From assembly GCA_963666985.2 (NCBI GenBank), contig CAXXIA010000002.1, positions 1,920,001 through 1,984,000 on the forward strand: a stretch of 64,000 nt of DNA, given 5' to 3'. This stretch comes from Spirochaetia bacterium (GTDB lineage: Bacteria; Spirochaetota; Spirochaetia; DSM-2461). The position numbers and the translations under genes were made by a program. A model generated the notes under the pieces. The model had not been told where the DNA came from. It did not search any database and saw only the letters and a program-made list of their open reading frames with translations. Numbering within the stretch: position 1 is the first letter of the stretch; each line of letters begins with the position of its first letter. Positions 104 to 17,917 of the stretch are shown here, piece after piece.

Positions 104-233
104 AACAGATGTTATGAGGTTCCGGCTGGCTATCGCCAACCTTCACCCAAATTGGCTTTTGTCATGTTGTTTGCGTTGGCAAACAACACGCCAATCCTTC
201 GGAACAGCCAACTTCTCATAACATCGGGCCGTT
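104..233 (+). repeat. attC-like repeat R0 (subtype B)
   Basis: AAC-A-GATGTTATGAG ... CTCATAACATC-GGGCC-GTT; same subtype as 6866-7013. Confidence 0.85.
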
Positions 234-302
234 ATTCGAAAAAATCTTTAACGGTAGAAAATCAATAACAGAAAGTAAGAATGCAATCGTATTACACAAG
301 GC

Positions 303-1040
303 TTAAGCGAGAATCCCAGGAATGATTAATATAAAAACAAGAAGATTTCCTATACCGTGGATTATTATCCCAATCCAAGTATTTTGATGCTTCTGTACTA
401 AATATGGAACTGCTAAGGATACTGGAATCAAAGAGATAAACGACCAAGGCATGAACATATGTACTAATAAATTCCACAATATCCCATTTACAAGCCATGC
501 CCACTTTCCAAATACTTTTTCCTGTAGTGGTAACGCATATCCTCTCCAAAGGAGTTCTTCCGCCCCGATATTGACTATTAACCATCCCAGCCAAAAGCCG
601 ACAATCCACCATTGGTCAGCTAAAGGAACCCCGAAAAAAGTTGTAAGTCCATCTGCGATTTGCAGTCCTGGATGGAAAAGTTCTGGTGTGAATTCTGGGA
701 CATGAAAAAAAGAATAGTTCATTAAGAAATGTCGAGTTGGCGCAAGACCCAGCTCAAGAGTCTGAACGCCAAGAAAACCAATAATAATCCAGAGCCAAGT
801 TTTACCCGATATCTTTCCAAATCTAAATCTGCTTATGAAATTTATATTTCTTTGTTTGTTGGATACAAAACATGTCAAGATAATAAACAATATCAATAAA
901 ATCGGAATCCATAGTGATAGGGAATAGCTGATGATTAATGGCCATCCTATTTTTGTAAGGTAGGGAACCAGAACTCTTGCGCCTAGAAACATAAGAATTC
1001 CAGGAATTCCGAAGAACACAAGAGACTGAATCAGATTCAT
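303..1040 (-). CDS. CPBP (CAAX/Abi) family intramembrane glutamic endopeptidase; cassette gene, inverted
   Basis: EELLWRG (EExxxR) motif, HxxxN (HGIGN), multiple TM segments. Start set at MNLIQ; the ORF is open to 1112. Confidence 0.85.
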   Translation of the reverse strand: MNLIQSLVFFGIPGILMFLGARVLVPYLTKIGWPLIISYSLSLWIPILLILFIILTCFVSNKQRNINFISRFRFGKISGKTWLWIIIGFLGVQTLELGLAPTRHFLMNYSFFHVPEFTPELFHPGLQIADGLTTFFGVPLADQWWIVGFWLGWLIVNIGAEELLWRGYALPLQEKVFGKWAWLVNGILWNLLVHMFMPWSFISLIPVSLAVPYLVQKHQNTWIGIIIHGIGNLLVFILIIPGILA

Positions 1041-1197
1041 TTTTCTTGAATTACAAAAAATAGAAAAGATGTTCATAAGAAGATGGTTACATGATTTAGC
1101 GGTAGAACTCAAGTTTTTAAATATTTTGCATGTGGTATATTTTTAATGTGACATAAGTAAAAGTTGGTTTTGAATAGATTTAACGATTTCTTCGAAT

Positions 1198-1395
1198 AAC
1201 AGCTGTTGATGCGCTCCGGCTGAAAATGAGATTTTCAGCCTTCGGGGCTTCGCCCAAATTTGCCTCTGTCATAGATTTTGCGAAAGGCCCGTGGCTATGA
1301 TACGATATCTTCAGTAAAAGGTTAGTGGTGTTATGATCGCAAAATCTCCGCCAGTCGCTTCGCGAGCGGCAAACTTCGCATACCAGCGGGCCGTT
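1198..1395 (+). repeat. attC-like repeat R1 (subtype A1)
   Basis: AAC-AGCTGTTGATGCG ... ACTTCGCATACCAGC-GGGCC-GTT. Confidence 0.9.
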
Positions 1396-1646
1396 TAGTG
1401 AAAAAACAGGAATATCATACAAGCCTCGCCATCCATGGCTCGGCTCTTGTTTCTTTCAATGAAGAAGGAACGCCGTGTAGTGAAAGAGTTTCTGAATCTA
1501 GAAAGGTTATTCTTAAATTCCCTCGAAGGAGAAAATAGATTAAAAAAAACCCTTAATCTATGCAGCAAGAACGATTGGCAATTTAGGAAATAGAATGTTC
1601 TTCAATATAGTATTAACTAAGAGCTGAAATACTAGTAATAAGGAGA

Positions 1647-2348
1647 ATGGTTATGACCGTTTCAAAAATCAGATACTGGGCTATGAAACGTAAACAAGAG
1701 GATCGAAAAGCAAATTTGCTATCTCGTAAAGCTCTATTTGGTTCCATCGTTTTCGGTATTACAACATTTGGTAGAGACGAACACAAGAGATCAATAAAAA
1801 TATTCAGGCCAAAGAATATTAATCAATTGCTTATAAGTGACATAACGCTCTTTGAACTGTCTTGCTATGCAATGATGCGAATTGAACAGTGGCTAGACAG
1901 GAAGGCAAGTCAGGAAGTGGATCAAACGGAAACCCCCTTAGACCTGCAAAAGACCGATGAAGAGATTACTGACCTTGTTGATGAAATCTATTCCAAATGG
2001 GAAAAGTTAGGAAAAAGTATACACTACGAGTTCATAGAACTGTATACGGATATATTTCAATCAAATCAGATTAAAGATATCTTTCAGGCAAGATTTGAAG
2101 AATATCGAAGAATGGTTGTCGCTTTAGAAATCACAGATACTGAGCAATATCACAAAGCAATCTCAACATTGTCCAGGATGTCAAATCAATACCTTCCAGT
2201 CTCACAGTTCAACTATGAGAAACTGCCTGTAATGCTCGGGTCCGCTTTAGAAGATATGGGATTCCGAGCGGAAATGACAGGATGGGAAATTCACATGATG
2301 CCGGCAATATTGAATACAATAGAAAAAGCTTCTCATTTTCTCATGTAA
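1647..2348 (+). CDS. Hypothetical protein (cassette gene)
   Basis: 233-aa ORF with AAGGAG just upstream; sole long ORF between R1 and R2. Confidence 0.75.
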   Translation: MVMTVSKIRYWAMKRKQEDRKANLLSRKALFGSIVFGITTFGRDEHKRSIKIFRPKNINQLLISDITLFELSCYAMMRIEQWLDRKASQEVDQTETPLDLQKTDEEITDLVDEIYSKWEKLGKSIHYEFIELYTDIFQSNQIKDIFQARFEEYRRMVVALEITDTEQYHKAISTLSRMSNQYLPVSQFNYEKLPVMLGSALEDMGFRAEMTGWEIHMMPAILNTIEKASHFLM

Positions 2349-2362
2349 TGAAACCTAGTATC

Positions 2363-2391
2363 CATTGGTAGCACGTCGTGTGCTACCAATG
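2363..2391 (+). terminator. Perfect 12-bp hairpin after the cassette gene (possible terminator)
   Basis: CATTGGTAGCAC-GTCGT-GTGCTACCAATG; no U-tract. Confidence 0.4.
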
Positions 2392-2428
2392 AAATCGAAA
2401 ATTGATTCAATGACCTGTTTCTTCACTA

Positions 2429-2619
2429 AACAGCTGTTGATGCGCTCCGGCGCCAGGGCGCCTTCGGGGCTTCGCCCAAATTTGCCTCTGTCATAGATTT
2501 TGCGGAAGGCTGGCGACTATGGTAGGATGACTTTCAGTAAATGGCTAGTTTTGTTCTGATAAGCAAAATCTCCGCCAGTCGCTGCGCGAACGGCAAACTT
2601 CGCATACCAGCGGACCGTT
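2429..2619 (+). repeat. attC-like repeat R2 (subtype A1)
   Basis: Same conserved ends; GGACC spacer before GTT. Confidence 0.9.
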
Positions 2620-2696
2620 AATTGAAATGGCGAAAAATCTCACCTCGCCGTCCTGGCTCGGTAGTAGTAAAATGTATAGAAAACGATTGAAAGGAT

Positions 2697-3566
2697 TTGT
2701 ACAATAACGTGAAAATACTCTCTACAAGAAAGACCTCTGCACTAATCGAGGAAATTGTCACAGAGTCAAAAAATTTTGTGCTCATTGTCAGTCCATACTT
2801 AAAAATATCGGACTCGTTGTACGAGCGTCTGGTTAGAAAACTAAATTTAGGAATCAGAGTTGTTTTACTTTTTGGCAAAGTCGACTCCAATTTTAGTCAG
2901 TATCAAAAACTTCGAGACCATAACAAGTCATCAATATTTTTTCTAGACAAACTACATGCAAAGATCTACGCAAACGAGGACATAGTTCTTGTTAGCAGTA
3001 TGAATTTACATTCATATTCAGAAATCAACAACTGGGAAATCGGTTTGCAAGAGGATAGCTCATCTTCTGAATATAAAAATATATTTAATGAAGTACTCTT
3101 GATGCTAAAAGCATCTACGTACAAATTTGGTGATAAAGATTATTCAATCATCGATTTGTCAAATGGGGCTCATGAATTTATAGGGATTCTCCAAGAAACA
3201 ATTAAAACTATTGATTTTCGTGTTATAGAAATACAAACCGGATGGGATGATGAAAAGTCCTACACCTTCAAAGGTACTTACCAACCAAAACAAGAAATTT
3301 CGATGATATTCAATTTCAACCATTTGGCGATTTCTAGTGACAGTGAAGATGACCTGCGGAGTATTTGTGAAACCATTGAGTCAAAGGGCTGCAAATCAGG
3401 TTTGAGATGCTTCCAAAAGAGCTATGAGAGGGAGCTAGCGATTTATCCACCTGATGGATTCAACGCACGTCGTGATAACATGGAGATAAAAGAATATCGC
3501 GCTATGTGGATTTCAATATTGGAAGACATTGAAAAGGTGCTCTGCGACAGCCTACAGGCTTCATAG
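2697..3566 (+). CDS. Phospholipase-D (HKD) superfamily nuclease-domain protein (cassette gene)
   Basis: IVSPY, LHAKIY and SSMNL...NWEIG motifs typical of PLD-like nuclease domains. True start may be GTG 2709. Confidence 0.8.
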   Translation: MYNNVKILSTRKTSALIEEIVTESKNFVLIVSPYLKISDSLYERLVRKLNLGIRVVLLFGKVDSNFSQYQKLRDHNKSSIFFLDKLHAKIYANEDIVLVSSMNLHSYSEINNWEIGLQEDSSSSEYKNIFNEVLLMLKASTYKFGDKDYSIIDLSNGAHEFIGILQETIKTIDFRVIEIQTGWDDEKSYTFKGTYQPKQEISMIFNFNHLAISSDSEDDLRSICETIESKGCKSGLRCFQKSYERELAIYPPDGFNARRDNMEIKEYRAMWISILEDIEKVLCDSLQAS

Positions 3567-3633
3567 ATAGTAGTCTCGCGAACATCGTGTTCGCGAGATA
3601 GGTTTAAGACTTTCGGATCTCGCCACTTCACTT

Positions 3634-3838
3634 AACAGCTGTTGATGCGCTCCGGCCGCTAAAGGTGTTTAGCGGCCTGCGGGGCTCCGCCCAAATTTCG
3701 CTTTGGCCATGGTTCTTGCAGATGCGTTTGTGAAAGTGGTGTGATAAGTTGAAGAGCGTACGGGCTTTCTTTTAAAGTGCAAGAACGCATGCCAACCGGC
3801 TTCGCCGGACGCGAAACTTCGCATACCAGCGGGCCGTT
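3634..3838 (+). repeat. attC-like repeat R3 (subtype A2)
   Basis: Conserved ends; internal GGCCGCTAAA/TTTAGCGGCC hairpin. Confidence 0.9.
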
Positions 3839-4554
3839 AGGTGAAATCAAAAGATTCATATTTTTAGGATTAACTATAAATGACATCTGAACACAAAGAA
3901 TTTATAAAGCGATCTATAAAAGTATTGCAGCATGATGAACGAATAATGGGTCTTGCTGTTGCCGGTTCTTTCATTACTAATGCAATGGATGAATTTTCTG
4001 ATATCGATTTTGTTATTGCCGTTGATTCAAAATATTACAATGAAATCTTAGATAAGAGAATTGAAATCGCTAAGAGTTTAGGACATTTGCTTTCTGCATT
4101 TACGGGAGAACATGTTGGAGAACCCCGATTGCTTATCTGCCTGTATAACAATCCCTTGATTCATGTTGATTTAAAATTCGTTTCGATTGATGAGATTGCA
4201 TATAGAGTTGAAGATTTCAAAGTATTGTGGGAACGTGACAATTGTATATCCGATAAACTTAAAGAAGAATCAGCACAATTTCCTAATCCAGATCTTCAAT
4301 GGATTGAAGATAGATTTTGGATTTGGATCCATTATGGAGCAGGAAAGATTGGTCGCGGTGAGATTTTTGAGACGATCGAATTTATTTCTTATTTGCGTCA
4401 GAACGTGATAGGCCCGTTAATCTTGATGAAGAAGGGAAAACGCCCCCAAGGTGTACGGAAGATTGAATTCGATGCGCCAGAATATTTGGAACGATTGAAG
4501 TCAACAATAGCGATTCATGAAAAGTGAACCACACCGGGATTCCCGGAGGCTGTT

Positions 4555-5466
4555 TTAGTTGAGTCCGGCAGCTACTGCCGAACATTCTTCCTGTTCATAA
4601 TACATCGATTCAAACTTCGCCGGGGGGATATCTCCAAGCGGCTCCATGATTCGGCGGTTGTTGTACCAGTCCACCCAGTCCAGGGTTTCCAATTCAACCT
4701 GTTCTATTCTCTGCCATGAGCTCCTCCGGTGGATGACTTCGGCTTTGTAGAGACCGTTGATAGTCTCAGCCATTGCGTTATCGTACGAGTCTCCTTTGCT
4801 CCCAACCGAAGGCTCGATACCGGCCTCTGTCAATCGATCCGAATATCGAAACGAAAGATACTGCCTTCCACGATCACTGTGATGAATCAGACCGTCGACT
4901 ACTTCCCTGGCCCAAAGCGCCTGATTGAGCGCATCAAGAGTAAAGTCGGTTTTCATCGACCGGCTAGCTCGCCAACCGACGATCATCCGGGAGAAGACAT
5001 CAATGATGAAGGCAACATAGACGAAGCCCTGCCAGGTGGAAACGTAGGTGAAATCCGCAACCCAAAGCCGATTCGGCTTGGAAGCTGTGAAATCTCTGTT
5101 AACCAGATCCTCGGGTCTTTCATCTTTCGGTGACGGGAAGGTGGTCTTGGTTCCCTTGCCCCGAATGACGCCTCTGAGACCCATAGAACGCATAAGACGT
5201 TCGACGGTACACCTGGCTACATGGAGATGCTTCTCATTTCTAAGAACCTTCCAGACTTTCCTGGCGCCGTAGACTCTACGGTTCTCATCCCATATCTCCT
5301 GAATCTCATTTTTAAGAAACCGGTCTCGACGTGTTCGATCAGGTTCGAGTTCAGGATCAGCTTCTCTTGCTTTTTGTAGATGATAGGTCGACGGAGCAAT
5401 CGGCAGTGATTTGCAGATAGGCTCGACTCCATATTCTTCCCGGTTCTCATTGATAAAACCGACCAT
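4555..5466 (-). CDS. IS3 transposase OrfB (DDE)
   Basis: WVADFTYV, HHSDRGRQY, DNAMAETING motifs. Confidence 0.95.
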   Translation of the reverse strand: MVGFINENREEYGVEPICKSLPIAPSTYHLQKAREADPELEPDRTRRDRFLKNEIQEIWDENRRVYGARKVWKVLRNEKHLHVARCTVERLMRSMGLRGVIRGKGTKTTFPSPKDERPEDLVNRDFTASKPNRLWVADFTYVSTWQGFVYVAFIIDVFSRMIVGWRASRSMKTDFTLDALNQALWAREVVDGLIHHSDRGRQYLSFRYSDRLTEAGIEPSVGSKGDSYDNAMAETINGLYKAEVIHRRSSWQRIEQVELETLDWVDWYNNRRIMEPLGDIPPAKFESMYYEQEECSAVAAGLN

Positions 5467-5786
5467 CAGTTCTTTCGGCGGTCGAGCTCCGCCTGGGCAA
5501 AATACGCTGAGGCCTTTCGAAGAATTTCGTTGGCAGTACGAAGTTCTCGATTCTCCTTTTCCAGCTCTTTAAGACGCTTACGCTCTTCACTGGTTAGACC
5601 ATCCCGCTGCCCTTCATCGATTTCTGCCTGCCGAACCCATTTCCGGAGTGTTTCGGGTGTACAGCCGATCTTAGCGGATATTGAACAAATCGCCGACCAC
5701 TGAGATTCGCTGTCCTTCTGCTTCTCAAACACCATCCGGACAGATTGTTCCCGGACTTCCTTGGGGTACCTTGTTTGCTTTCCCAT
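5466..5786 (-). CDS. IS3 transposase OrfA
   Basis: HTH plus leucine-zipper (ELEKENRELRTANEIL); stop overlaps the orfB start. Confidence 0.95.
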   Translation of the reverse strand: MGKQTRYPKEVREQSVRMVFEKQKDSESQWSAICSISAKIGCTPETLRKWVRQAEIDEGQRDGLTSEERKRLKELEKENRELRTANEILRKASAYFAQAELDRRKN

Positions 5787-6017
5787 GACACAATCCTCTC
5801 AAGTAATTGTGCCTCCGGTAAAGCCGGGGTGGTTCAAAGAGATCTTGTTATGAAGTTTTGAAGAATATTGTTTTGCTTTATAGGGAACTACGAGAAGAAC
5901 TCCAAAATCTAGATTTCAATTACAATTCAGAGACAGAAGAAGTAGCCATGGCTTATTTGGATGATATCTATAAGAGGTGTGTATAAGAGAATGAGAAAGT
6001 ATTGCTTGATTTCACCT

Positions 6018-6225
6018 AACAGCTGTTGATGCGCTCCGGCCGCTAAAGGTGTTTAGCGGCCTTCGGGGCTTCGCCCAAATTTCGTTTTGGCATGGCATCT
6101 TGCAGATGTGTTTTCAAAAGTGATGTGATAAGCTAAAAAAACAAACAGGCTTTCTGCTAAAAGCAAGAGCGCATGCCAACCGGCTTTCAGCCGGACACGA
6201 AACATTCGCATAACAGCGGGCCGTT
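6018..6225 (+). repeat. attC-like repeat R4 (subtype A2)
   Basis: Conserved ends and internal stems. Confidence 0.9.
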
Positions 6226-6252
6226 TGGTGAAATTCGTATAAGGAATAAAGA

Positions 6253-6849
6253 ATGATAGCAAGTGTAATATTGTCTCATCCATATCCTAAAAGTTTTAAT
6301 CATGCAATTTTCAAAACAGTGATACGGGCATTAAAAGAGAAACAAGTAAAAGTATATAACCATGATCTTTATGAAGAAGGCTTTAATCCTATTCTCACAA
6401 AAGAAGAATTAGGGTCTGATCAATCAACTGATAAATTAGTCAATCAGTATGCAAAAGAGTTAGTCGAATCAGACTCTTTATTTTTTATACATCCAAATTG
6501 GTGGGGACAACCACCAGCAATTATGAAAGGATATATCGATAGAGTTATTCGTCCTCCTTATGCTTATGATTTCCCAAAAGATGACTCAGGTGGTGGATTA
6601 CCTTTAGAAAAATTGAATGGAAAATATGGAATAGTTTATAATACTGGGAACACCGAGAGCAAACGAGAAAAAAATTACTTTGGTGATCCATTAGAAAATA
6701 TCTGGGAAAAATGTGTTTTTGGTTTTTTAGGAATTAAAAAATATAAAAGAAGACTCTTTTGTGTAATTGCTGATAGCACAGAAGAAGAAAGGCTAGAGTG
6801 GCTAAAGAAAATTGAAGAAGATATAGATCTAGTTTTGGAAGAGAAATAA
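6253..6849 (+). CDS. NAD(P)H-dependent quinone oxidoreductase (flavodoxin-2 fold); cassette gene
   Basis: SHP..SFN, HPNWWGQPPAIMKGYIDRV motifs. Confidence 0.9.
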   Translation: MIASVILSHPYPKSFNHAIFKTVIRALKEKQVKVYNHDLYEEGFNPILTKEELGSDQSTDKLVNQYAKELVESDSLFFIHPNWWGQPPAIMKGYIDRVIRPPYAYDFPKDDSGGGLPLEKLNGKYGIVYNTGNTESKREKNYFGDPLENIWEKCVFGFLGIKKYKRRLFCVIADSTEEERLEWLKKIEEDIDLVLEEK

Positions 6850-6865
6850 AAGCCGAACTTCACCA

Positions 6866-7013
6866 AACAGATGTTATGAGGTTCCGGCTGGCTGACGCCA
6901 CCCTTCACCCAAATTAGCCTTTTGAAAAACTTCGGAGAAATTGCAAAGCAATTTTCCTCAGCTTTTCAAGCCCACAAGGGGCTCAGGCTAACTTCTCATA
7001 ACATCGGAACGTT
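6866..7013 (+). repeat. attC-like repeat R5 (subtype B)
   Basis: AAC-A-GATGTTATGAG ... CTCATAACATC-GGAAC-GTT. Confidence 0.85.
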
Positions 7014-7036
7014 AAACGCCACTCGAACTTTGTCGT

Positions 7037-7170
7037 TGGAGAGACCAGGACATCCTTTACATTTTAGGTACAGGACATCGTTTACACTAAACAAGCTTGA
7101 ACGAAGCATTTGAGCCCATCAACAGAAGGGGTAAAGGCATAGTTTTTCCAGTCAATTTCTCCTAATCTCG
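7037..7170 (-). mobile_element. Remnant end of an IS481-family element
   Basis: Close but diverged match to 13552-13685 (ACCAGGACATCCTTTACATTTTAGGT.CAGGACATCGTTTACACTAAACAAG...), including the transposase C-terminal codons. Confidence 0.85.
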
Positions 7171-7306
7171 AACAGTAAGAAAAATTGCTAGTGTGGTGAA
7201 CTTGAAATAGAAATCACCTTATAAATAGCCCTTCAAAAGGGGCTCATAACCTGTACTGCTATAATTAGGCAAAATTGATTTATGAATCAAATATGATTGT
7301 ACGACA

Positions 7307-7993
7307 TTAGGAAATAGGCGTCTTGGAATGATCGGCCACTTTTTCAGCTGTCATGTCAAGAACTCCATAAATTGCCTCTTGCCGATATTCGTCGGTCAAT
7401 ATTTGTTCTTTTTCTTTTGCCTCTTTACCAAAATTCATGAATGGGTATTTCAACTGAACTGTATATGTCTCATAAAGGCTTGCTACCGATTGCCTATTGT
7501 GAACGTCTACTATGTTGCCTCTCGATTTCCCAAACATATTTTCAGGTGTATTATTTCCAATCTTGTTCTGTTCCCAGTATTCTTGAATATATGCTTCACA
7601 AAGGATTACGTAATCAGCAGACAACTTTGAACCTATATCAACCACAATGGCCAATTCATTTTCTTCTAATTGATATGAATTTTCTACATCCGGCATATCT
7701 TCAGTAATGTATATTGGATACTCGTTAATAGTAGACTTAAGTTCTGCATAGCTAATAATTTCTATTAAGGTTGCTTCTGCAATTTTCTCCGCTAGGTATT
7801 TTGCGTTTCTCTCATGATTGCTGTCGTCAAGTGGTGAAACAACAAGCAATCTTTTGCCTGTGAAGTCAATTTCGTCTAAGAATTTCGTTTGATTTCTTAG
7901 TCGACCAACAGCCCCAAGTGTTGAGCAACCAACGAAAATTACAGGTATAATAGCAAAAAAAAGAACAAAGCGCTTTTTCATTTTAGTCTCCAT
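7307..7993 (-). CDS. Putative lipoprotein; cassette gene, inverted
   Basis: MKKRFVLFFAIIPVIFVG-C signal peptide/lipobox. Confidence 0.75.
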   Translation of the reverse strand: METKMKKRFVLFFAIIPVIFVGCSTLGAVGRLRNQTKFLDEIDFTGKRLLVVSPLDDSNHERNAKYLAEKIAEATLIEIISYAELKSTINEYPIYITEDMPDVENSYQLEENELAIVVDIGSKLSADYVILCEAYIQEYWEQNKIGNNTPENMFGKSRGNIVDVHNRQSVASLYETYTVQLKYPFMNFGKEAKEKEQILTDEYRQEAIYGVLDMTAEKVADHSKTPIS

Positions 7994-8096
7994 AAGATAT
8001 CGAAGATAATAGATATAAACTTATTAAAAACGAATTCATTTGAATGTCAACCACATTTTTCTGTTGGGATAATTTATAGAACTTCGAGCGGCGTTT

Positions 8097-8294
8097 AACA
8101 GCTGTTGATGCGCTCCGGCTGATAACGAGGTTATCAGCCTCCGGGCTCCGCCAAATTCGTCTTTGTCAGAGATTTTGCGTGAGTCTAACGTGTATGGTAA
8201 AATGCTTTTCAGTAAACGGTTGAGTTTGTTCTGAGAGGCAAAATCTCCGCCAACCGCTACGAGGACGACGAACTTCGCATACCAGCGGACCGTT
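8097..8294 (+). repeat. attC-like repeat R6 (subtype A1)
   Basis: Conserved ends; GATTTTGC/GCAAAATC inner stem. Confidence 0.9.
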
Positions 8295-9272
8295 AGTCGC
8301 AAATACAATGATATACATTTCTAGCATGGTCGTACCACACAATATCTCGAGGATTGCAGATATCGATGAATGTCATTTCGAGAATCCTCCAATGATTGTT
8401 TTCGACACAAACATTTGCATAGATTTATACAAACTGTGGTGCAACCCAAGGCTAATGCGCAATGAACAGCACAAACAGTTTATGGAATTGGTCGATCTGT
8501 GCACAAAAATATACAAGAATGGTTGGCTATTTTTTCCCCATTTTGGAATAGAAGAAGCTTCTTTCAGTGAATTTTCAAATCGAGGAGAGTCTGACAAAGA
8601 GCAGCATATGCACATGGCCTTATTGAACTTGCTAGGTAGTGATCTGCAAAGCTTTCTAGCACATATCAATTCAACTTTCAGTAGCATTGAGCACTATACT
8701 CGTCGTGTAGATTCAAAATCATATATACGGCGAATAAGGAATGATATTATTTTTAGTGATCTTTTACCTTTGAAATACTGCTCAATGATGAAATTGTTTA
8801 TTCTTTGTAACGACATAGATAGTTACAAAGAGCGTTTGTTTGAATTCTTTAATTATCTACTGAATAACATAAATTGTGTTGACGTAGGATCAATCATCAC
8901 AGCGACATTTCTTACTAGCAGAAAGAAGATGAAAATGCTTTTCCATCGGCTACAAAACAGCTCGAGCGCAGGTTTAAGGAGTATTTTAAATTCTGCGATT
9001 GATCTTACGTTTATTGAGCTCTCAAGTCGTATTTACCTTGAGGGCCTAACACCAATATTTTGCTCACAGAATAAACTTCTTATCGAAATAGAGAATGCTA
9101 CAAAAGTGCAAATTTTTCAAAATGGTATTCCTGCAAAAGGTATTTATGCAGATCGGCTTCCGGAAAACGAGGTCGTTATGGAGTTTATAGAGTTTATGAA
9201 AAAGTCGCTAGAAAAAAGGGATTCGTATATAAAACACTTCAATAAGCATCATGTTTGGGCAGAAATAGCTAA

Positions 9273-10296
9273 GGCGGATTGAAATTCCTAATGCACGAAA
9301 ATAGAAGTGCAAGGAGTTTCAATGAGTTACCGCAGAATAACATTTCAAGAACGAATGTCTATCTTCCAAATGCGTTATGTTGAGAATCTGAAAATATCAG
9401 AAATCGCATATCGTTCAGGACGCAATCCATCGAGTATTTCAAGAGAATTGCAAAAAGGAGATGATTCAGGAAGTTATAATCCCTTTCTTGCTGAATACTT
9501 GTCTTTAAAGCAACGAAGATATCAATGTCCAAAATTAAAAATTAGTTCAGAAGTCTGGAAAGAAATAAAATCAAAATTGGAACTTCGATGGTCACCTGAT
9601 GAAATTGCTCATTGGTGGAATCAACTATATCCTGAGAAAAGCATGAGTGGAAGAACCATCTATAATTATGTCCATTTCCATATGAGGGGTGAACTAAAGA
9701 AACTGGCGTTAAATGATCTTCGCCGACGTGGAAAGTCTCCCAAAAAGCCAAAGAATGACGGTAGAGGCAAGTTAAAAGACATAACCTTGATCGATGAGAG
9801 ACCGCCGGAAGTAGAAGGCCGAGAAGTTCCAGGCTATTGGGAGGGAGACTTAATCATAGGAAAAGACCATAAGTCGGCTATCTGTGTCATTGTGGAAAGG
9901 CAAACACGATTTATCCAAATGGATCTTCTTCTCAAATACGATGCAGCAACTGTTCGAAAAACAATTGAGAAACGATTTAAGCGGATAGAACCTCATCTAA
10001 GAAAGACGTTGACCTTGGATCAAGGTAAGGAAAATAGTGAGCACAAGCGGTTGGCTGAAAAAGCTGAAATCGATGTTTTCTTTTGTCACCCCCATTCGCC
10101 ATGGGAAAAAGCATCATGCGAAAATACAAATGGTTTGATCCGTGATATGCTTTATGAAATTGATGATTTTCGGAATATCGACCAATATTATGTGGGTCGA
10201 ATAGCCCGATTGTTAAATGAAAGGCCAAGAAAAACTTTGGAGTATAAAACGCCGAAGCAGGCATTGGCTGAATTGCGTTAGGAATCTCAATCCGCC
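9273..10296 (+). mobile_element. IS30-family insertion sequence, 1024 bp
   Basis: IRs GGCGGATTGAAATTCCTAATGCA / TGCGTTAGGAATCTCAATCCGCC; TAA direct repeats on both flanks. Confidence 0.92.
9322..10281 (+). CDS. IS30 transposase
   Basis: GYWEGDLIIG, TLDQGKE, PHSPWEKASCENTNGLIR, LNERPRKTL motifs. Confidence 0.95.
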   Translation: MSYRRITFQERMSIFQMRYVENLKISEIAYRSGRNPSSISRELQKGDDSGSYNPFLAEYLSLKQRRYQCPKLKISSEVWKEIKSKLELRWSPDEIAHWWNQLYPEKSMSGRTIYNYVHFHMRGELKKLALNDLRRRGKSPKKPKNDGRGKLKDITLIDERPPEVEGREVPGYWEGDLIIGKDHKSAICVIVERQTRFIQMDLLLKYDAATVRKTIEKRFKRIEPHLRKTLTLDQGKENSEHKRLAEKAEIDVFFCHPHSPWEKASCENTNGLIRDMLYEIDDFRNIDQYYVGRIARLLNERPRKTLEYKTPKQALAELR

Positions 10297-10336
10297 TAAT
10301 CTAGAAAAGGAAATAGTCAAACGTGTATCTGCGACT

Positions 10337-10542
10337 AACAGCTGTTGATGCGCTCCGGCGTCAACTAGCGTTGCCGCCTCCGGGCCTACGGCCAAATTTC
10401 GCTTTGGACATGGCTCTTGCAGATGCAGACTCAGAAGTGATGTGATACAGTCAAAGGCGAACAAAGCATTGCTGAAGCCGTTGCAAGAGCGCATGCCAAC
10501 CGGCTTTGCCGGACGCGAAACTTCGCATAACAGCGGGCCGTT
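10337..10542 (+). repeat. attC-like repeat R7 (subtype A2)
   Basis: Conserved ends and internal stems. Confidence 0.9.
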
Positions 10543-10682
10543 TTGTGCATTTCGAGAATTCTCATAGACGGAATATTTTAGATTTCTCCAATAAGATCTT
10601 TATTGTTTATCAAATCCCCTCAGCTTGACATTTATAGTATGACGTTTAAATGTAGACGCATTAACAAACACAGGAGAATTCT

Positions 10683-12056
10683 GTGAACGGATTCATCATA
10701 TTATTGATTCTTTACGCAATCTTAGGGACTGTAATCAGTATCTTCGTTATGCGGCGAAAGCCATCTCAAGAAGATTACTTTATTGGGGGACGGGCCGTTG
10801 GATGGATCGTCTCGGCGCTCACCTACGCCGCTACAACATACTCGGCTTTTATGATGGTTGGCCTTGTCGGTCTATCATATAACACAGGCATTGGCGCCTT
10901 CATTTTTGAGACAGTCTATCTTCTTGCCACTTTGATCTTATTGTCAGTTTACGGGCAAAAGATTTGGACGATGGGAAAAGAAAAAGGCATGGTCTCACCG
11001 ATGGAGCTTTTTACAAACCGCTATGGACCTATTACCGGCGGAGTTGGAGCGATAATCGCTTTTATTGCGCTTATTCCTTATACGTCGGTGCAAGTGATAG
11101 GACTTGCCCTTATTCTCCAGAACTATGGCATAACCTTCAATCAAGGAATCATCATTGCCGTCGGCATTATTGCAGTCTGGACATTTCTTGGAGGTCTACG
11201 AGGCGTTGTGTTAACAGATGCTATTCAGGGATTTCTGATGATGGCCATAGCCATTGCAGCGGTTATCTGGACGGGAAGTCGGTATAAAGGGGTTGAACTT
11301 TCGACGTTCCCGAACAATGTTTGGACACCAATATTCTTTATCAATCTGACTCTCCCCTGGGCGTTTTTTGCTCTCACGAATCCGCAAGTGGTTCAAAGGC
11401 TTTTCATCATTAAGGACAAGCGTGACTTTCGGAAGATGCTCATTCTTTTTGGTGTGTTTGGCCTGGTTTTTACTACAATCGTAACGGCAATTGGAGTCTC
11501 GGCGAAGTTTGGTACGCTTCAAGGAATCCTCCCGGTAGTCTCCGATCAAGATGGTGTTATTGTTGCAGTGATGTCGCAAATGAGAAATTGGCTGGCAATT
11601 CCTTTAGCCCTGAGCATTATTTTTGCATCAGTATCAACGGCCAACTCAATAATCCTCACGTTATCCTCAATGATGACAAGGGATGTTTTTCGTCAAAAGA
11701 ACAATGTTTGGCTGGGCCGAGGTATCATCATCGGACTCGCAGTATTGGTAGGTCTTTTTTCCTTAACACGCCCAAACTATCTGGTGCAGCTTTCAGTCGC
11801 ATCGTCACGAATCTTGATGTGCTTTCTTCCCCTTATGTTTTCATTGTTTCACGGAAAGCGAGGAGGAGAGGTTACAGGCATTCTAACTCTTGTTGGTGGA
11901 GCAATATCAGCGATTCTTTTCGGTCTGATTGCATCTTCATACAGCTCGCTTCTTACTCTCGGAGCCGTAGTTTTGCTTTATTTAATCGGACTGGCTATTG
12001 AGAATGGATTCTTCTCTTGCAAGATTTTTCATCGGAAATCAAGAACTGAGACATAA
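10683..12056 (+). CDS. Sodium:solute symporter family transporter (PutP/PanF-like); cassette gene
   Basis: DYFIGGR, ATTYSA, GGLRGVVLTDAIQG, PQVVQR motifs; many TM helices; AGGAG RBS. Confidence 0.9.
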   Translation: MNGFIILLILYAILGTVISIFVMRRKPSQEDYFIGGRAVGWIVSALTYAATTYSAFMMVGLVGLSYNTGIGAFIFETVYLLATLILLSVYGQKIWTMGKEKGMVSPMELFTNRYGPITGGVGAIIAFIALIPYTSVQVIGLALILQNYGITFNQGIIIAVGIIAVWTFLGGLRGVVLTDAIQGFLMMAIAIAAVIWTGSRYKGVELSTFPNNVWTPIFFINLTLPWAFFALTNPQVVQRLFIIKDKRDFRKMLILFGVFGLVFTTIVTAIGVSAKFGTLQGILPVVSDQDGVIVAVMSQMRNWLAIPLALSIIFASVSTANSIILTLSSMMTRDVFRQKNNVWLGRGIIIGLAVLVGLFSLTRPNYLVQLSVASSRILMCFLPLMFSLFHGKRGGEVTGILTLVGGAISAILFGLIASSYSSLLTLGAVVLLYLIGLAIENGFFSCKIFHRKSRTET

Positions 12057-12116
12057 ACATGTGATTAGTTTGAATGGCCAAGACGGCGAATCATTTTGAA
12101 TAATAGAAATGCACAA

Positions 12117-12313
12117 AACAGCTGTTGATGCGCTTCGGCGGTAACGAGGTTACCGCCTCCGGGGCTTCGCCCAAATTTGCCTCTGTCACAGATTTTGCAT
12201 ATGTCTACCGCTGTGGTAATATAAATTGTAGTTATCGTTTGAGGTTGTGAAGAATCGCAAAATCTTCGCCAGTCGCTTCGCGAATGGCAAACTTCGCATA
12301 CCAGCAGAACGTT
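12117..12313 (+). repeat. attC-like repeat R8 (subtype A1)
   Basis: Conserved ends; AGAAC spacer. Confidence 0.9.
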
Positions 12314-12484
12314 TTACGAAAAACCTATAGAAACTTAATGTATAAAAATACCGTCATATACGTGAAATGAAAATTCATTGTCTTATCGGTCAATAACGCA
12401 TTAGATAACAAGTCATAGTAAGCATACTGTTAGTAAATACACATATAAGATTACTGTAAAAATAGAATAGGCAACTATCACCAT

Positions 12485-13198
12485 CTATATGTTTATTTTT
12501 GTTTCTAATATGGTATGGTCACTATAATTTTTAACCTTCCCATAATTCCAAGAAAATGTTTTTTCAACTGCAATTGATAGATCCTTGCTGACAAATATAT
12601 GATCATCTTGATAGTGATTTTCCTCTGACATATTGGCACCAAAAAAAGTCTGTGAATAAACGGGACAACACTCGTGAAAATGTAAACCAATTTTGTCAAA
12701 AATGTCACTAAAGAATCCATTTACCATAACCGTGTCAGCGTTGAAGTCTCCACCAATGATGAACCTACTTTTCGAACTAAGAACCGTTGCATTAAAAATG
12801 CTCTCAATGTGGCTTCTTATTGTATAGATACCGTCAGGAGATGTATTTGTATGTAGACTGCATAAGGTTATAGAAGTGCCATTATTGCTTTCGAATTCAA
12901 CGAAAACTTGTTTCCCTTTGTGTTTTTCAGAATCGATATATTTATCTGTAACATCCGAAATTGAGCCCGTTTTCAATATATTTTCACTAAAATATAAGCA
13001 TGTACCCCATTTTGGTAGCTCAGTTGTTTTGCAAGTCTCACTTTCATGAAAAATCGCCATTTCAGTAAATCTTTCAGGGACTACGGTTTCCTGAAGAAAT
13101 GCGACATCTGGACATACAGATGATGTTAAATAATCCCAAGCCTGGTCATTAGTTCCATTCTGTTGCCAATAGTTCATATTCCATGTGACAAGTTTCAT
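12485..13198 (-). CDS. Endonuclease/exonuclease/phosphatase (EEP) family protein; cassette gene, inverted
   Basis: TWN, LQE, GGDFN, DHIF, SDH motifs; GAGGAG RBS. Confidence 0.88.
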   Translation of the reverse strand: MKLVTWNMNYWQQNGTNDQAWDYLTSSVCPDVAFLQETVVPERFTEMAIFHESETCKTTELPKWGTCLYFSENILKTGSISDVTDKYIDSEKHKGKQVFVEFESNNGTSITLCSLHTNTSPDGIYTIRSHIESIFNATVLSSKSRFIIGGDFNADTVMVNGFFSDIFDKIGLHFHECCPVYSQTFFGANMSEENHYQDDHIFVSKDLSIAVEKTFSWNYGKVKNYSDHTILETKINI

Positions 13199-13325
13199 TA
13201 AATACTCCTCTTAAGGAGTTTATCATTGCTCATAGAGATTACGAGAATAAATGAGATGATTGAAGAGAAAGGATAAAGATTAAAATCTTTATTAGGGCAG
13301 ATGCGAGTCAATTAGTTTTTCGTAA

Positions 13326-13530
13326 AACAGCTGTTGATGCGCTCCGGCCGCTAAAAGTGTTTATCGGCCTTCGGGGCTCCGCCCAAATTTCGCTTTGGCC
13401 ATGGTTCTTGCAGATGCGTTCCTGGAAGTTGTGTGATAGGCTCAAATGCGAACAGGTTTTCCGTTGAAGTGCAAGAACGCATGCCAACCGGCTACGCCGG
13501 CCGCGAAACTTCGCATACCAGCGGAACGTT
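13326..13530 (+). repeat. attC-like repeat R9 (subtype A2)
   Basis: Conserved ends and internal stems. Confidence 0.9.
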
Positions 13531-13551
13531 ATATGTAATGCCCGATTTTCA

Positions 13552-14891
13552 GTGAGCGACCAGGACATCCTTTACATTTTAGGTCCAGGACATCGTTTAC
13601 ACTAAACAAGTTTAAACGAAGCATTTGAACCCATCAACAGAGGGTATAAATGCAAATGTTTTCCGATCAATTTCTCCTAATCTTAAATTGTCAAACCAGA
13701 CGGTAAAAGTCTCATCTTCATTTTCTCGAAGACCAACTTGGTATCCAACAAAGACATAACTGACGAAAATCCTGTGCCGGTCTATGGTCACCGCCCCACG
13801 ATTATTAATCATTCTCACCTCATATCCGGGTGGATAAATCACCTGTGGAATCTGAGAAGGGAAGGGCCGTTTGGACTTTGTGTAAACACTTCCGGGAGTC
13901 TGCATTTTAAGAGCTTCATGAGGTCGAACACTGTTGAACTGATTTCTCCAGACATCAAAATGCGCCTGATGTTCAGAGAGGTTACCCTGAATCTGTCCCT
14001 GTAATTCCCGTTTGATATCGGCATGCATTCTCTCATGCCCCCCGTTCTCACAAGGTCGTCCCGGAGTGATGCGATCAAGTTCGATTCCCAAGGCCAACCA
14101 CCAAACACTTAAGCGTGTGAGCCCCAGCAGGCCCTTCATGGAGGCAAAGGGAGGTCCGTTGTCGGACCTCATGACTCTGGGCATTCCATAGATGGAAAAG
14201 AGCTTCTCAAACTCGGTTCTAACTTCTTGTGTGTCAGCCTTTTGGAGTGCTTTGATGGTGAAGATGTATTTGGAAAACTCATCCCGAACGGTCAAAGGTT
14301 CACATCGTTCTCCCTCGGGAGTATACCACCATCCTTTGAAGTCCACGGTCCAGATGTCATTCGGCTGCTTGGCTTGAAGACGGCTCTGGATTCGCTGAGA
14401 TTTATTCTGCCGGCGCTTCTTTCGGTGCACCACCAGACCGGCTTTATCCAGGATGCGTTTCACGGTGGTCAGACTTGGACTCTCCTGGTGGGGATGTGTC
14501 TTCTGGTAGATATCGAGGATTTTCTTTGGCCCCCATTTGGTGTGTCGTGATTTGATTCGGACGATGTCGCAGATGACATTCTCCGGTGTCTGGTTAGGGC
14601 AGATACGAGGTTTCCTGGTTCTTTCATTCAGACCGGCGAGCCCTTCCTGAATAAACCGGTTCTTCCATTTAAGGCCTGTTGGCCGGGAGATCCCGTACTC
14701 GGCACAGAGGTCTTTCATACAGACATGGGGATCCATGGCCTTGAGGGCGAACTCGAATTTGACATCCATAATATTGGTCTCCTTCCACGGCATAACCAGC
14801 ACCTCGATAAGGGAAAGTGCTGATCATTTTAGTCCTTGTCGTGTAAAGGATGTCCTGGTACTCTCGTGTAAACGATGTCGTGGACCCGTAC
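13552..14891 (-). mobile_element. IS481-family insertion sequence
   Basis: Both ends carry two copies of CCA(G/C)GACATC(C/G)TTTACA in inverted orientation. Exact termini uncertain; no target duplication seen. Confidence 0.85.
13612..14793 (-). CDS. IS481-family transposase
   Basis: MPWKET start, WTVDFKG, SDNGPPF, NGGHERMH, RPHEAL motifs. Confidence 0.92.
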   Translation of the reverse strand: MPWKETNIMDVKFEFALKAMDPHVCMKDLCAEYGISRPTGLKWKNRFIQEGLAGLNERTRKPRICPNQTPENVICDIVRIKSRHTKWGPKKILDIYQKTHPHQESPSLTTVKRILDKAGLVVHRKKRRQNKSQRIQSRLQAKQPNDIWTVDFKGWWYTPEGERCEPLTVRDEFSKYIFTIKALQKADTQEVRTEFEKLFSIYGMPRVMRSDNGPPFASMKGLLGLTRLSVWWLALGIELDRITPGRPCENGGHERMHADIKRELQGQIQGNLSEHQAHFDVWRNQFNSVRPHEALKMQTPGSVYTKSKRPFPSQIPQVIYPPGYEVRMINNRGAVTIDRHRIFVSYVFVGYQVGLRENEDETFTVWFDNLRLGEIDRKTFAFIPSVDGFKCFV

Positions 14892-15713
14892 CGAATAAAA
14901 AGGGGATTCTTTTTAAGGTGTTTTTTTCTGTGGCAGCCTCATTCCCTTCATTTGAACAAGTAACAGAAACAGAACCCCTTTGAGTGGTCAGATCTTTTTA
15001 ACAGGCCTTCCTTCTCTTTGAACAAAACAGGTCGTTTTGATGCGGCTTTCTCCTCACCCCCTTCGCCTTTGAGATCATCTTCAAGAAAGAAACCAAAAGC
15101 ATCGGAATAAAACTCGCTTCGGGATCAGAAGCACTTAGTGATAAGGCGGTCGGTTCGGGAGAACTTGTGTCGTGAAGGTTTATGGTTTTTAACGATTATG
15201 GGAATCGCTCATGAGAAAATCCTTATCCGTTGATGGTTATCGCTTCGGGAAATGAGGCGCTCATGCTTTGATAGGTTCGCGAGAAAAGGGGTGGTAGCCT
15301 GAGAAGAATGAAGGGATGGAGATGAGAAGAATGGAGATTGTTTTCTCCGTGGTTTTGCCTTTGAGAATAAGGCTGAATGCTTTGGGGAATACCGGTGTAG
15401 AAGGAGAAGACGAACATTCGGATTTACAGAATCCGTCCTGAGAGAAAGAGGTCGGGAAAGGCGAATTGCATCGGATGATGGCCTGAGTAAAGTGATGAGG
15501 CGATGAAAGGGAGAATGGGGGTCAGTATGAGAGAATGGATAGCCATTTCGATGAATGAGTAAAAAGCGGAAGAGGGAAGTCTGTAAAAGGATGAATGAAG
15601 AAAAGATGAGAAGGAGAAGGGCAAGAAGAATCGAAACAAAGGCTCAGGTAAAACGGCGAGGATGGGTGAGGAGAAGGAGATGTCTTTATAGATGCGTCGT
15701 CCGAACTTCCTTT

Positions 15714-15843
15714 AACAGCTGTTGATGCGCGTCGGCCGCTAAAAGTGTTTAGCGGCCTTGGGCCGAGCGAAGGGAAACTATGAGTTTTATGATTTTTAGT
15801 AAAAGGGAAGAAACAAATTGGTTCGGCTCGGCCAAATTTCGCT
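15714..15843 (+). repeat. Truncated/degenerate attC-like repeat R10 (left arm only)
   Basis: AACAGCTGTTGATGCGC..GGCCGCTAAAAGTGTTTAGCGGCC and GGCCAAATTTCGCT are present, with an insertion between them; the CGCATACCAGC..GTT arm is missing. Confidence 0.8.
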
Positions 15844-15998
15844 GATGGTCGGTTTCGTATTGACGAATATTCGTGCTTTCAGTAACTTGCCACAAGTCAA
15901 GGATATACGGGGACTTCCCTGCCTTCTCTAAATCTTCATGAACGGGACTGGATGCGGTTGTGCGTGCAATTGGATTCAGTTTCCGGGGAGTTTTAGTG

Positions 15999-17159: not shown

Positions 17160-17623
17160 AACCGGGTGTCCGCTCTCGACGGATCCCGACCTGACCGGGG
17201 GCCCAAACCGAACCGGGCCGCCTCCCCGGCTGGGCGGGGGGGAATGGATTTACCCGTTACGCCAAATCTCCCGGCGCCGGCTATCCATTGCGATTTCGAC
17301 TTCAAGGAGTTCTTTTCCCGCCGACCGATACCGGGGATGTTCCGGCGGATAGAGTTCCCAGGTTTTCGGATGGCGGAACCCGTTGCACAGGATGAACCGC
17401 TTCCTTGCCCACAACTCATACAAACCTCTCATTTCATACCCTCCGAATGAGTGAAAAAATCTTCCATTGGGAAGAGAGCCGCCCCTTCCAACGGCTTGAC
17501 TGCCAATTCCTGGTCCCGGGAAGGTTCGGTCAAGGCCGCCGAAGGCGCCCGGAGGGCTCGGCCTTGACGGGTTCTTCCCGGGGCAGGACACTGCAAAAAG
17601 CCGGAGGAAGGAGCTACAACTGT

Positions 17624-17917
17624 ATGGGGTATCAGTTCGAAGAGAAGGAAGCCGAACTTTTTCGACGCATCGATGAGGTTTTATTCTATCTCTGGGATCC
17701 CATCGGAGTATCGACAGACATCAGTCCCAGGGACGAATACCGATCTTATCTTCCCAAGGTCTTCAACCTGGCGAATTCGGAAGGCGCCGAACAAGAACTT
17801 TCAGATTACCTCTACTCTGTTGAAACGAGTGACATCGGCGTACGCGGAAGCCGGCAGCGCTGCGATGAAATTGCCTCTTTGGTGACAAAGCCCGCAAGGA
17901 CATATCGAGAGAGTTAG
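17624..17917 (+). CDS. Small hypothetical protein (WDPIGV...DEY motif)
   Basis: 97 aa after an AGGAG; recognisable conserved-hypothetical motif. Confidence 0.65.
   Translation: MGYQFEEKEAELFRRIDEVLFYLWDPIGVSTDISPRDEYRSYLPKVFNLANSEGAEQELSDYLYSVETSDIGVRGSRQRCDEIASLVTKPARTYRES

Follow-up and report, generated by a model that had tools for sequence, protein, structure and literature searches.

A 158-kb integron-like array of long, branched attC-like sites beside a tyrosine recombinase without the IntI insertion in a spirochaete

The window analysed here, a stretch of 64,000 nucleotides from a Spirochaetia bacterium (genome G000, contig C2, positions 1920001-1984000; the genome comprises 4.86 Mb on three contigs and is 93.1% complete), opens with a series of long, co-oriented repeats that lie between genes and resemble the attC sites of integrons. 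These repeats form the distal end of an array that occupies a single block of ~158 kb at C2:1778054-1935843. A whole-genome scan for site ends recovered 86 complete sites and a broken last one, all on the plus strand and located from C2 1779213 to 1935714; among the complete sites, 67 measure 191-224 nt, 16 measure 261-269 nt and three measure 129-148 nt. The array holds at least 87 cassettes, and four unusually long intervals may conceal degenerate sites that the scan missed. At its other end the block faces the gene of a tyrosine recombinase, and it is the pairing of this recombinase with the array that we describe here.

The repeat pattern was scanned on both strands of the window and compared with 100 shuffles. 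The left-end pattern AACAG[AC]TGTT matched 37 times against 5.98 expected, a number that none of the 100 shuffles reached, and ten right ends of the form ...CA[GT]C-GGNCC-GTT were found (0.00 expected). The recombinase gene and the features of the array within the window are listed below, in contig and window positions, respectively. Sites assigned to body type A or B rest on their lengths, the alignment and covariation unless another basis is given, and open reading frames are abbreviated as ORFs.

C2:1777133-1777966, minus strand, divergent from the array: tyrosine recombinase gene, 277 aa, 142 kb left of the window
104-233, plus strand: attC-like site of the short class, 130 nt, AACAGATG...CATCGGGCCGTT, with GATG/CATC as a compensatory variant of GCTG/CAGC
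234-1197, plus strand: cassette interior with an Rce1-like/CPBP protease gene at 303-1112, minus (PF02517, 44.9 bits; end complementarity)
1198-1395, plus strand: attC-like site, 198 nt, body type B
1396-2428, plus strand: cassette interior with a 233-aa ORF at 1647-2348, plus, without a Pfam family
2429-2619, plus strand: attC-like site, 191 nt, body type B
2620-3633, plus strand: cassette interior with a gene for a PLD-like protein at 2697-3566, plus (PF13091)
3634-3838, plus strand: attC-like site, 205 nt, body type A (lengths, DNA folding)
3839-6017, plus strand: cassette interior with a nucleotidyltransferase gene at 3880-4527, plus, and an IS3-family element (Pfam, Rfam, contig piece 4525-5836)
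~4525-5836, within the preceding interior: IS3-family element with transposase ORFs at 4555-5466 and 5466-5786, minus, and an ALIL frameshift pseudoknot at 5392-5508 (100.6 bits)
6018-6225, plus strand: attC-like site, 208 nt, body type A
6226-6865, plus strand: cassette interior with a flavodoxin-like FMN/quinone reductase gene at 6253-6849, plus (PF02525, 103 bits)
6866-7013, plus strand: attC-like site of the short class, 148 nt (end motifs)
7014-8096, plus strand: cassette interior with a 228-aa ORF at 7307-7993, minus, without a Pfam family
8097-8294, plus strand: attC-like site, 198 nt, body type B
8295-10336, plus strand: cassette interior with a 324-aa ORF at 8308-9282, plus, without a Pfam family, and an rve/HTH_38 transposase gene at 9307-10281, plus (Pfam)
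10337-10542, plus strand: attC-like site, 206 nt, body type A
10543-12116, plus strand: cassette interior with a sodium:solute symporter gene at 10683-12056, plus (PF00474)
12117-12313, plus strand: attC-like site, 197 nt, body type B
12314-13325, plus strand: cassette interior with an endonuclease/exonuclease/phosphatase (EEP)-family gene at 12485-13198, minus (PF03372)
13326-13530, plus strand: attC-like site, 205 nt, body type A
13531-15713, plus strand: last cassette interior, with an IS481-family element from ~23 nt past GTT and its transposase gene at 13612-14802, minus (Pfam, copy comparison)
15714-15843, plus strand: last attC-like site, of the long class, broken off after ~130 nt; distal end of the array

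The original prediction, made from the sequence of the window alone, had described 11 repeats in the same direction, and left ends were found at all 11 start positions in the list; the right ends are the end positions of the ten complete sites. Its range of 191-208 bp for eight cores is exact, the two remaining complete sites form the short class, and of the eleventh only the initial ~130 nt remain, with homology ending at 15843. The spacer of 1 nt against 5 nt that it had pointed out is present in all ten complete sites of the window, eight of which are included in alignment A1. Most of its gene names are likewise borne out by Pfam (CPBP/Rce1-like, PLD-like, nucleotidyltransferase, flavodoxin-like reductase, Na+:solute symporter and EEP), whereas the proteins called PIN-like (8308-9282) and lipoprotein (7307-7993) have no Pfam match and stay unconfirmed. 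The description of single unrelated genes between the repeats needs a correction, since three cassettes additionally carry insertion sequences (ISs), namely the IS3 element at ~4525-5836, the rve/HTH_38 transposase gene at 9307-10281 and the IS481-type element from ~13554. That no IntI was in view is correct for the window itself; inspection of the sequence to its left is what revealed the divergent recombinase.

The sites share an elaborate secondary structure. We aligned the 67 sites of standard length and tested seven helices with 35 pairs, in which 94.6% of the cells are paired, compared with 83.7% after shuffling and 33-52% when the partners were slid. Both sides have changed in 16 of the 35 pairs and compensatory changes occur in five of the seven helices, so that the branched interior proposed for the window sites is backed by covariation. 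Read on the top strand, a site consists of the following parts.

Outer 5' part: AAC, 1 nt, GCTG, a 3:2 loop, ATGCG
Junction: a variable hairpin of 6-10 bp, a small GGGC/GCCC hairpin, and a long stem bearing another hairpin
Outer 3' part: CGCAT, CAGC, a 5-nt bulge (GGGCC, GGACC, GGAAC or AGAAC), GTT

The 261-269-nt class carries an additional arm of ~60 nt within the small hairpin, and two body subfamilies, A and B, are set apart by compensatory changes. As in attC sites, AAC and GTT enclose an imperfect inverted repeat whose R and L boxes pair; the two triplets are invariant, and GCTG/CAGC is conserved apart from the GATG/CATC variant. Canonical attC sites are roughly 55-140 nt long. Where such sites have a near-symmetric spacer between the R and L boxes and end in a simple hairpin, those of the array have 1 nt facing 5 nt, extend over 129-269 nt and are multi-branched. 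Where the L stem gives way to the stem that follows it, a loop of 3 nt against 2 nt places one extra base on the 3' arm of the bottom strand, as far as the sequence itself indicates. A crude scan that counted exact stems of 4-5 nt at every pair of spacer lengths found an offset of 4 nt in excess at this array and at its insertion-less relatives, whereas the canonical IntI loci of relatives are in excess at offsets 0-1 (the spirochaete set also at 3). Length, branching and this asymmetric spacer, set against the symmetric peak at canonical IntI loci, support the original suggestion of a distinct class of gene-capture site. The site at 3634-3838, folded as DNA, reaches -46.0 kcal/mol on the bottom strand (z -3.61) and -44.0 kcal/mol on the top strand (z -2.80).

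The 5-nt bulge before GTT is itself variable (for example at window positions 3829-3833 and 12304-12308). A strict tie of the bulge to the downstream cassette was considered and rejected, and one to the body of the site does not hold either: copies of the same cassette may follow GGGCC as well as GGAAC, and these positions can vary between downstream sites that are identical in all else. The variation could be a footprint of the exchange reaction. A promoter suspected by eye inside the sites (TTGCAG...TGnTAAGAT) was likewise dismissed, a consensus scan giving 22 promoter-like matches against 35.6 expected, none of them recurrent in the repeats. No terminator-like signal recurs in the repeats, and Rfam, DUF1874 included, has no match in them at the gathering score or at E up to 5, its only match being the ALIL pseudoknot of the IS3 element.

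The unit that moves can be read from the cassette ends and from the duplicates. Between the 10 nt that follow the GTT of one site and the 10 nt that precede the AAC of the next, 9.04 of 10 positions are complementary on average, with at least 8 in 81 of 85 pairs, whereas the two flanks of one site and random pairs score 4.65/10 and 4.64/10, respectively. This pairing reaches 12-13 nt beyond the AAC/GTT triplets. At position 8 of the resulting R stem, 52 of 85 cassettes have C opposite A on the top strand, which corresponds to a G.T pair on the bottom strand. Dispersed copies of whole cassettes mark the borders further. One cassette without an ORF is present seven times; its interiors are 96.2% identical and its downstream sites 96.1%, whereas the upstream sites are 71.4% identical, against a background of 71.8%. 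No Rfam family matched it. In four pairs of perfect duplicates (cassettes 25/65, 31/45, 63/64 and 50/71), identity opens right past the upstream GTT and closes at the downstream GTT. Since the downstream site of a duplicated cassette matches and the upstream one does not, the cassette is the interior plus its downstream site, and the non-collinear positions of the duplicates indicate copying of single cassettes rather than segmental duplication. A gene is thus followed by its own attC-like site, and the R' tail past G/TT belongs to the next cassette, as in integrons. The clearest case is the cassette nearest the recombinase, an EEP-family nuclease gene with a 210-nt site, which is 100% identical to cassette 75, 135 kb away, over ~1369 aligned columns without a mismatch; the flanks of the two copies are wholly diverged beyond both GTTs.

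C2:1778057-1779422 (attI end) and C2:1913138-1914503 (cassette 75): identical EEP-nuclease cassettes
C2:1797754-1798251 (L022:1754-2251): ORF-less cassette of 237-239 nt with a long-class site of 261-262 nt; six more copies in C2:1801983-1906297, some adjacent in tandem

We read the first of these pairs as an internal cassette copy recently inserted at attI, which would be the characteristic integron reaction. Fixed gene content without mobility, which according to the original prediction would have spoken against a capture system, is contradicted by perfect dispersed duplicates of single cassettes, one of them at attI. A more distant EEP-family gene also lies in the window, at 12485-13198. 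Contigs assembled from three sequencing runs, two of them from one sample, contain site-to-site joints and loose ends at site borders, as ~87 near-identical sites would give; in the third run, one contig leaves a similar site end into different DNA.

The junction at which the array begins has the make-up of an attI site. At C2:1778054, 88 nt upstream of the recombinase start codon, GTTATAAGCCATT occurs in exact form: a GTT and, after it, the left flank of the first site as its exact reverse complement. An attI-like junction thus appears to stand beside the gene of the putative integrase, with insertion apparently between G and TT. The enzyme itself is related to integron integrases and to XerA alike. 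TIGR02249, the integron integrase model, matches it with 220 bits where 265 are required, the match being split in two and leaving model positions 178-239 unmatched, whereas NF040815, the XerA model, gives 224.6 bits, marginally over its cut-off of 220. Its best sequence match in the PDB is VchIntIA (2a3v, 160 bits), in which IntI residues 181-245 are replaced by the 22 query residues 179-200. In an AlphaFold model (mean predicted local distance difference test score, pLDDT, 82.5), residues 181-198 form only short strands and a loop, and a fold search with this model returned 2a3v first and XerA next. The distance from the GKG..R motif to HxxRH is 65 aa in the recombinase and its clade, compared with 106-107 aa in canonical IntI and 61-75 aa in Xer proteins. 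The protein therefore lacks the ~42-aa insertion that makes up the IntI-specific domain (intI_Cterm, I2 helix). The catalytic R-K-H-R-H-Y set is present and is invariant or nearly so in the 21-member clade of the recombinase, in which P0002-P0021 are at least 59% identical; P0002, on a 70-kb contig, reaches 97%. In genome contigs, a query with the single protein gave no relatives, and a query with the alignment gave only relatives of at most 45% identity.

A tree of 85 recombinases, built by a quick search without bootstraps, supported by the Shimodaira-Hasegawa-like approximate likelihood ratio test (SH-aLRT) and rooted at the midpoint, places the canonical IntI proteins in one clade (SH-aLRT 100). 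The recombinase of the array falls outside it, in a clade of its own (99) that groups with insertion-less recombinases of spirochaetes. Together with XerA-like proteins, IntI and the clade of the array make up a supergroup (100) from which XerC/D-like proteins are separate. Of the two origins that the original prediction had offered, a divergent integron lineage or a parallel system, the absent insertion and the branch outside the IntI clade favour a separate lineage within the IntI/XerA superfamily. A canonical IntI upstream of the repeats, named in advance as a finding that would make this an ordinary integron, was not encountered: across the three contigs of the 93.1% complete genome, TIGR02249 has no match over its cut-off.

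The same arrangement recurs in other spirochaetes. Five loci (L039, L040, L134, L135 and L138), hosted by a Marispirochaeta metagenome-assembled genome (MAG), another Spirochaetaceae MAG and three further relatives, have the layout beside insertion-less recombinases that are 36-45% identical to the one described here, with the array in the same orientation in all five. In two of them, L040 and L135, an attI-like junction lies ~94-100 nt from the start codon. The sites of L134 and L138 read AAC-N1...N5-GTT, matching the window reading, and those of L039, L040 and L135 read AAC-N5-stem...stem-N1-GTT, which is the opposite-strand reading of the window sites. All are shorter, at ~75-150 nt. BLAST found sites 71-76% identical to those of the array in 6 of 13 same-genus genomes and in none outside the genus among the genomes searched, and the very long, branched form of the site appears to be a feature of this genus. 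A survey of the phylum, which counts genes and not arrays, found an insertion-less relative at E <= 1e-60 in 67 of 401 genomes, G000 included. In a complete same-genus genome (G005), the locus L137 (G005:C1:1073000-1092999) holds a small array of the same site class with an attI-like junction and only fragments of a recombinase (94 aa and 55 aa); it looks like a decayed copy of the system. Beside a canonical IntI gene of the same genus (L129), a search of the neighbouring sequence for repeats found no conserved repeat family.

We consider it quite probable that the locus is an integron-like array of 158 kb and at least 87 cassettes, which are excised and inserted between the G and the TT of GTT by the adjacent insertion-less recombinase. 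The platform has the functional anatomy of an integron, and it departs from integrons as known in the IntI insertion, in membership of the IntI clade and in the geometry of canonical attC sites; array and recombinase together are likely an overlooked second kind of integron. In the mechanism that we propose, the sites would act as folded single strands, and the recombining strand is probably the bottom one, because the geometry is then integron-like, the G.T pair at position 8 of the R stem exists only there and the bottom strand folds slightly better (in 64 of 86 sites; in the site quoted above, z -3.61 versus -2.80). The AAC/GTT stem with its cassette-specific extension would correspond to the R box and GCTG/CAGC to the L box, and on the bottom strand the exchanged AAC would be followed directly by the conserved 5-nt bulge. 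In classical integrons, strand and register are marked by extrahelical bases that the I2 helix of IntI reads. Here the 5-nt bulge (GGNCC on the top strand, beside the exchanged GTT) facing 1 nt may mark the strand, the register and the cutting end, and the long branched interior, in which a long stem is joined by three hairpins, would represent the variable terminal structure in an elaborate form. Extending this beyond the locus, we lean slightly towards a broader model in which integrons are of at least two kinds. Beside IntI, short XerA/IntI-like recombinases that have no I2 insertion would form a lineage of their own, which captures and shuffles cassettes by way of folded sites; a bulge with a 4-nt asymmetry beside the exchanged GTT, instead of extrahelical bases, would determine strand and register. 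In this genus the sites of this lineage would have reached ~200-270 nt and the array ~3% of the chromosome.

Several observations weigh against this interpretation. By passing the XerA cut-off, the enzyme could, from its sequence alone, be named a Xer-type recombinase, and the IntI domain that it lacks is stated to be necessary for recombination activity in a passage of Ghaly 2022 (PMC9668308, citing Messier and Roy 2001). Recombinases without intI_Cterm near attC sites, as described in passages of Cury 2016 (PMC4889954), had fewer than three sites and were judged 'not IntI'. Regarding the sites, RNAalifold favoured a different register of the outer stem next to the spacer, with two G.U pairs; we prefer the 1:5 register on the strength of the compensatory GATG/CATC changes, although only a few sites have them, and of the stems in relatives, which are longer. 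The greater stability of the bottom strand amounts to a mere ~1.4 kcal/mol on average, and G.T-type departures outside position 8 of the R stem favour neither strand (34 versus 29). The array is also heavily invaded by insertion sequences, with 25 IS-related ORFs, and in only 47 of 75 cassettes (63%) does the longest non-IS ORF point the same way as the array. Finally, the joints in the assembled contigs are indistinguishable from the other ~87 similar sites and are therefore uninformative on excision.

It is conceivable that a canonical IntI, since lost or left out of the assembly, built the array, in which case the adjacent recombinase would be a bystander, for instance of Xer type, and the locus a fossil resembling a CALIN, a group of attC sites that has no integron integrase. 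Canonical IntI is common in the group, TIGR02249 being over its cut-off in 18 of 40 relatives searched and in 5 of 13 same-genus genomes among them; at least one same-genus genome, G005, has such sites beside nothing more than recombinase fragments; and both the score over the XerA cut-off and the 93.1% completeness of the genome, which leaves room for a canonical IntI in unassembled DNA, would fit. We nonetheless hold this improbable, as the pairing of recombinase and array recurs at the five related loci with enzymes of only 36-45% identity, two of them (L040 and L135) with an attI spacing of ~90-100 nt, and the geometry of the sites is unlike that at canonical IntI loci of relatives. Moreover, the perfect 1.37-kb cassette copy exactly at the attI junction indicates that an insertion was recent, yet no IntI match over the cut-off exists in the three contigs.

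Two further explanations were weighed, and we give very little credence to either. The repeats might primarily be structured RNA elements, cis-regulatory or small RNAs, spread by some other duplication process, an option that has been left open for the DUF1874 motif. Their long multi-branched interior covaries, and covariation does not separate RNA from single-stranded DNA; passages of Weinberg et al. 2017 (PMC5737381) describe a multistem motif from consecutive intergenic regions where no integrase was seen. Against this reading, the repeats match none of the Rfam families, DUF1874 among them, at E values as high as 5. They lack any recurrent promoter-like or terminator-like signal, accompany genes on either strand (47 to 28) and are duplicated with boundaries exactly at GTT triplets, and the cassette-specific ends pair across the whole cassette, which makes sense only in an excised or circular form. 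The site interior may still have an added role as RNA. Equally doubtful to us is a recombinase that works on double-stranded, Xer/dif-like sites through the 10-bp palindrome AACAGCTGTT at the left ends, with folding incidental. This palindrome is perfect in 9 of the 11 window sites, the enzyme is without the domain that has been linked to recognition of single-stranded sites, and integron integrases retain an ancestral double-strand activity, according to Escudero 2016. However, the crossover lies at the right-hand GTT and not at the left palindrome, and the cassette moves with its downstream site. The short class breaks the palindrome (AACAGATGTT) jointly with its distant partner CATC, so that the long-range pair is kept, and the complementarity of the cassette ends, together with the covariation within sites, points to selection on folding. 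Recombination of folded cassette sites by the insertion-less enzyme therefore remains the account that we prefer.

The cargo is varied. Pfam annotation covered 120 of the 134 cassette ORFs of at least 70 aa, plus the window's own ORFs, and revealed many type II toxin-antitoxin pairs, with ParE, HigB, four HicAB, two MazF, PIN and Phd. Defence-like genes encode a CAP12/Pycsar TIR effector, ThsB-TIR with a caspase, SIR2, STAND and NACHT NTPases, a Schlafen-like protein, a DpnII-type restriction-modification pair and a reverse transcriptase. Other ORFs encode GNAT acetyltransferases, and many belong to no family. The array is thus a store of toxin-antitoxin genes, defence-like genes and proteins of no known family. 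Among the insertion sequences, the IS3 element of the nucleotidyltransferase cassette has ORFs with Pfam scores identical to those of ORFs elsewhere in the array, which are likely the same IS. The IS481-family element of 1.35 kb (window 13554-14900) sits at the same offset in at least nine cassettes, among them C2 cassettes 13, 22, 26, 36, 43, 48, 54 and 57. Its copies are 85-100% identical, share one orientation and start 23-24 nt past the GTT of the preceding site, and the element behaves as if it targeted this site class. In classical integrons, attC sites are targeted by the IS1111-attC group. The stretch 7039-7168, in the interior that follows the 148-nt site, matches the beginning of the IS481-type element (13554-13683; repeat family D9) at 89% identity.

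The array breaks off within its last site. A search of the remaining window did not recover the 3' half that this site lacks, and right behind the array end lie the gene of a 399-aa phage-type integrase (15960-17159) and a gene for a terminase large subunit (18748-19659). The end of the array thus seems to be adjoined, or to have been cut, by an integrated phage-like element (window 15843-19659). Outside the array, a whole-genome search found a lone 90-nt fragment of the 5' part of a site at C2:2674171-2674260 and a lone 24-nt left-end motif at C1:803983, which may be relics of secondary insertions.

The locus is a very large and, judging from its duplicates, apparently recently active cassette platform headed by an insertion-less recombinase, with a site geometry that recurs across spirochaete genera. 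Integron integrases have been defined and sought by an extra domain that is held to be necessary, and recombinases without it were dismissed, as passages of Cury 2016 set out. If the enzyme of this array does the job, our observations would have several implications: (i) What the IntI insertion is really needed for could be tested on a natural example, and the supposedly indispensable domain would be one solution among others. (ii) It would offer a candidate picture of how integrons originated from Xer-like enzymes. (iii) Standard tools would file the whole class as 'no integron' or as an orphan attC cluster, and censuses would undercount gene-capture platforms. Full-text searches found no account of cassette arrays with an insertion-less integrase or of long attC sites with a 1:5 asymmetry, the supplementary lists of Cury 2016 (Figures S1 and S5, tables), which possibly hold spirochaete cases, lying outside these searches.

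Several known systems come close to the recombinase and its array. XerA enzymes act at one dif site, where they resolve chromosome dimers. The recombinase resembles XerA of archaea and candidate-phyla bacteria (NF040815; PDB 4a8e, 5hxy) in length, in domain layout, in the absence of the IntI insertion and in its place in the same supergroup of the tree, but unlike XerA it heads a 158-kb array of 87 sites with an attI-like junction, and not a lone site. Integrons of Treponema denticola and its relatives are likewise chromosomal cassette arrays in the same phylum; according to passages of Wu et al. 2013 (PMC3607928), their attC sites measure 63-68 bp, at most 132 bp, and have typical R and L boxes along with a protruding G, and a canonical intI is transcribed towards the array, whereas the recombinase here is divergent and insertion-less and most sites are ~200 nt long. 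The DUF1874 motif, a multistem structure in consecutive intergenic regions, was proposed as a possible unusual attC beyond the simple hairpin, with no integrase at the array end in the relevant passages of Weinberg et al. 2017 (PMC5737381); unlike the elements so described, the sites of the present array have no Rfam match, and both a recombinase and an attI-like junction were identified beside them. In the passages of Cury 2016 (PMC4889954) that define IntI, an additional intI_Cterm profile stands for the insertion, and a tool based on this profile would call the array a CALIN, provided that its sites were detected. In contrast to the cases without intI_Cterm in those passages, however, an intact and conserved recombinase lies here at the attI end of at least 87 sites. 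Also close in layout are sedentary chromosomal integrons such as the Vibrio cholerae superintegron, whose VchIntIA is the best match of the recombinase in both sequence and fold. The recombinase here is without the ~42-aa insertion that bears the I2 helix and lies outside the IntI clade, its sites are covarying, multi-branched structures of 129-269 nt with spacers of 1 and 5 nt, and their R stem is lengthened by 12-13 cassette-specific pairs, all of which sets the system apart from sedentary chromosomal integrons. With them it shares a recombinase gene that is divergent and has an attI-like junction ~90 nt upstream, a long co-oriented array of AAC...GTT sites, crossover at the 3' GTT with cassettes that carry the downstream site and their own R' tail, duplicated and ORF-less cassettes, toxin-antitoxin and defence-like cargo, and colonisation by insertion sequences.

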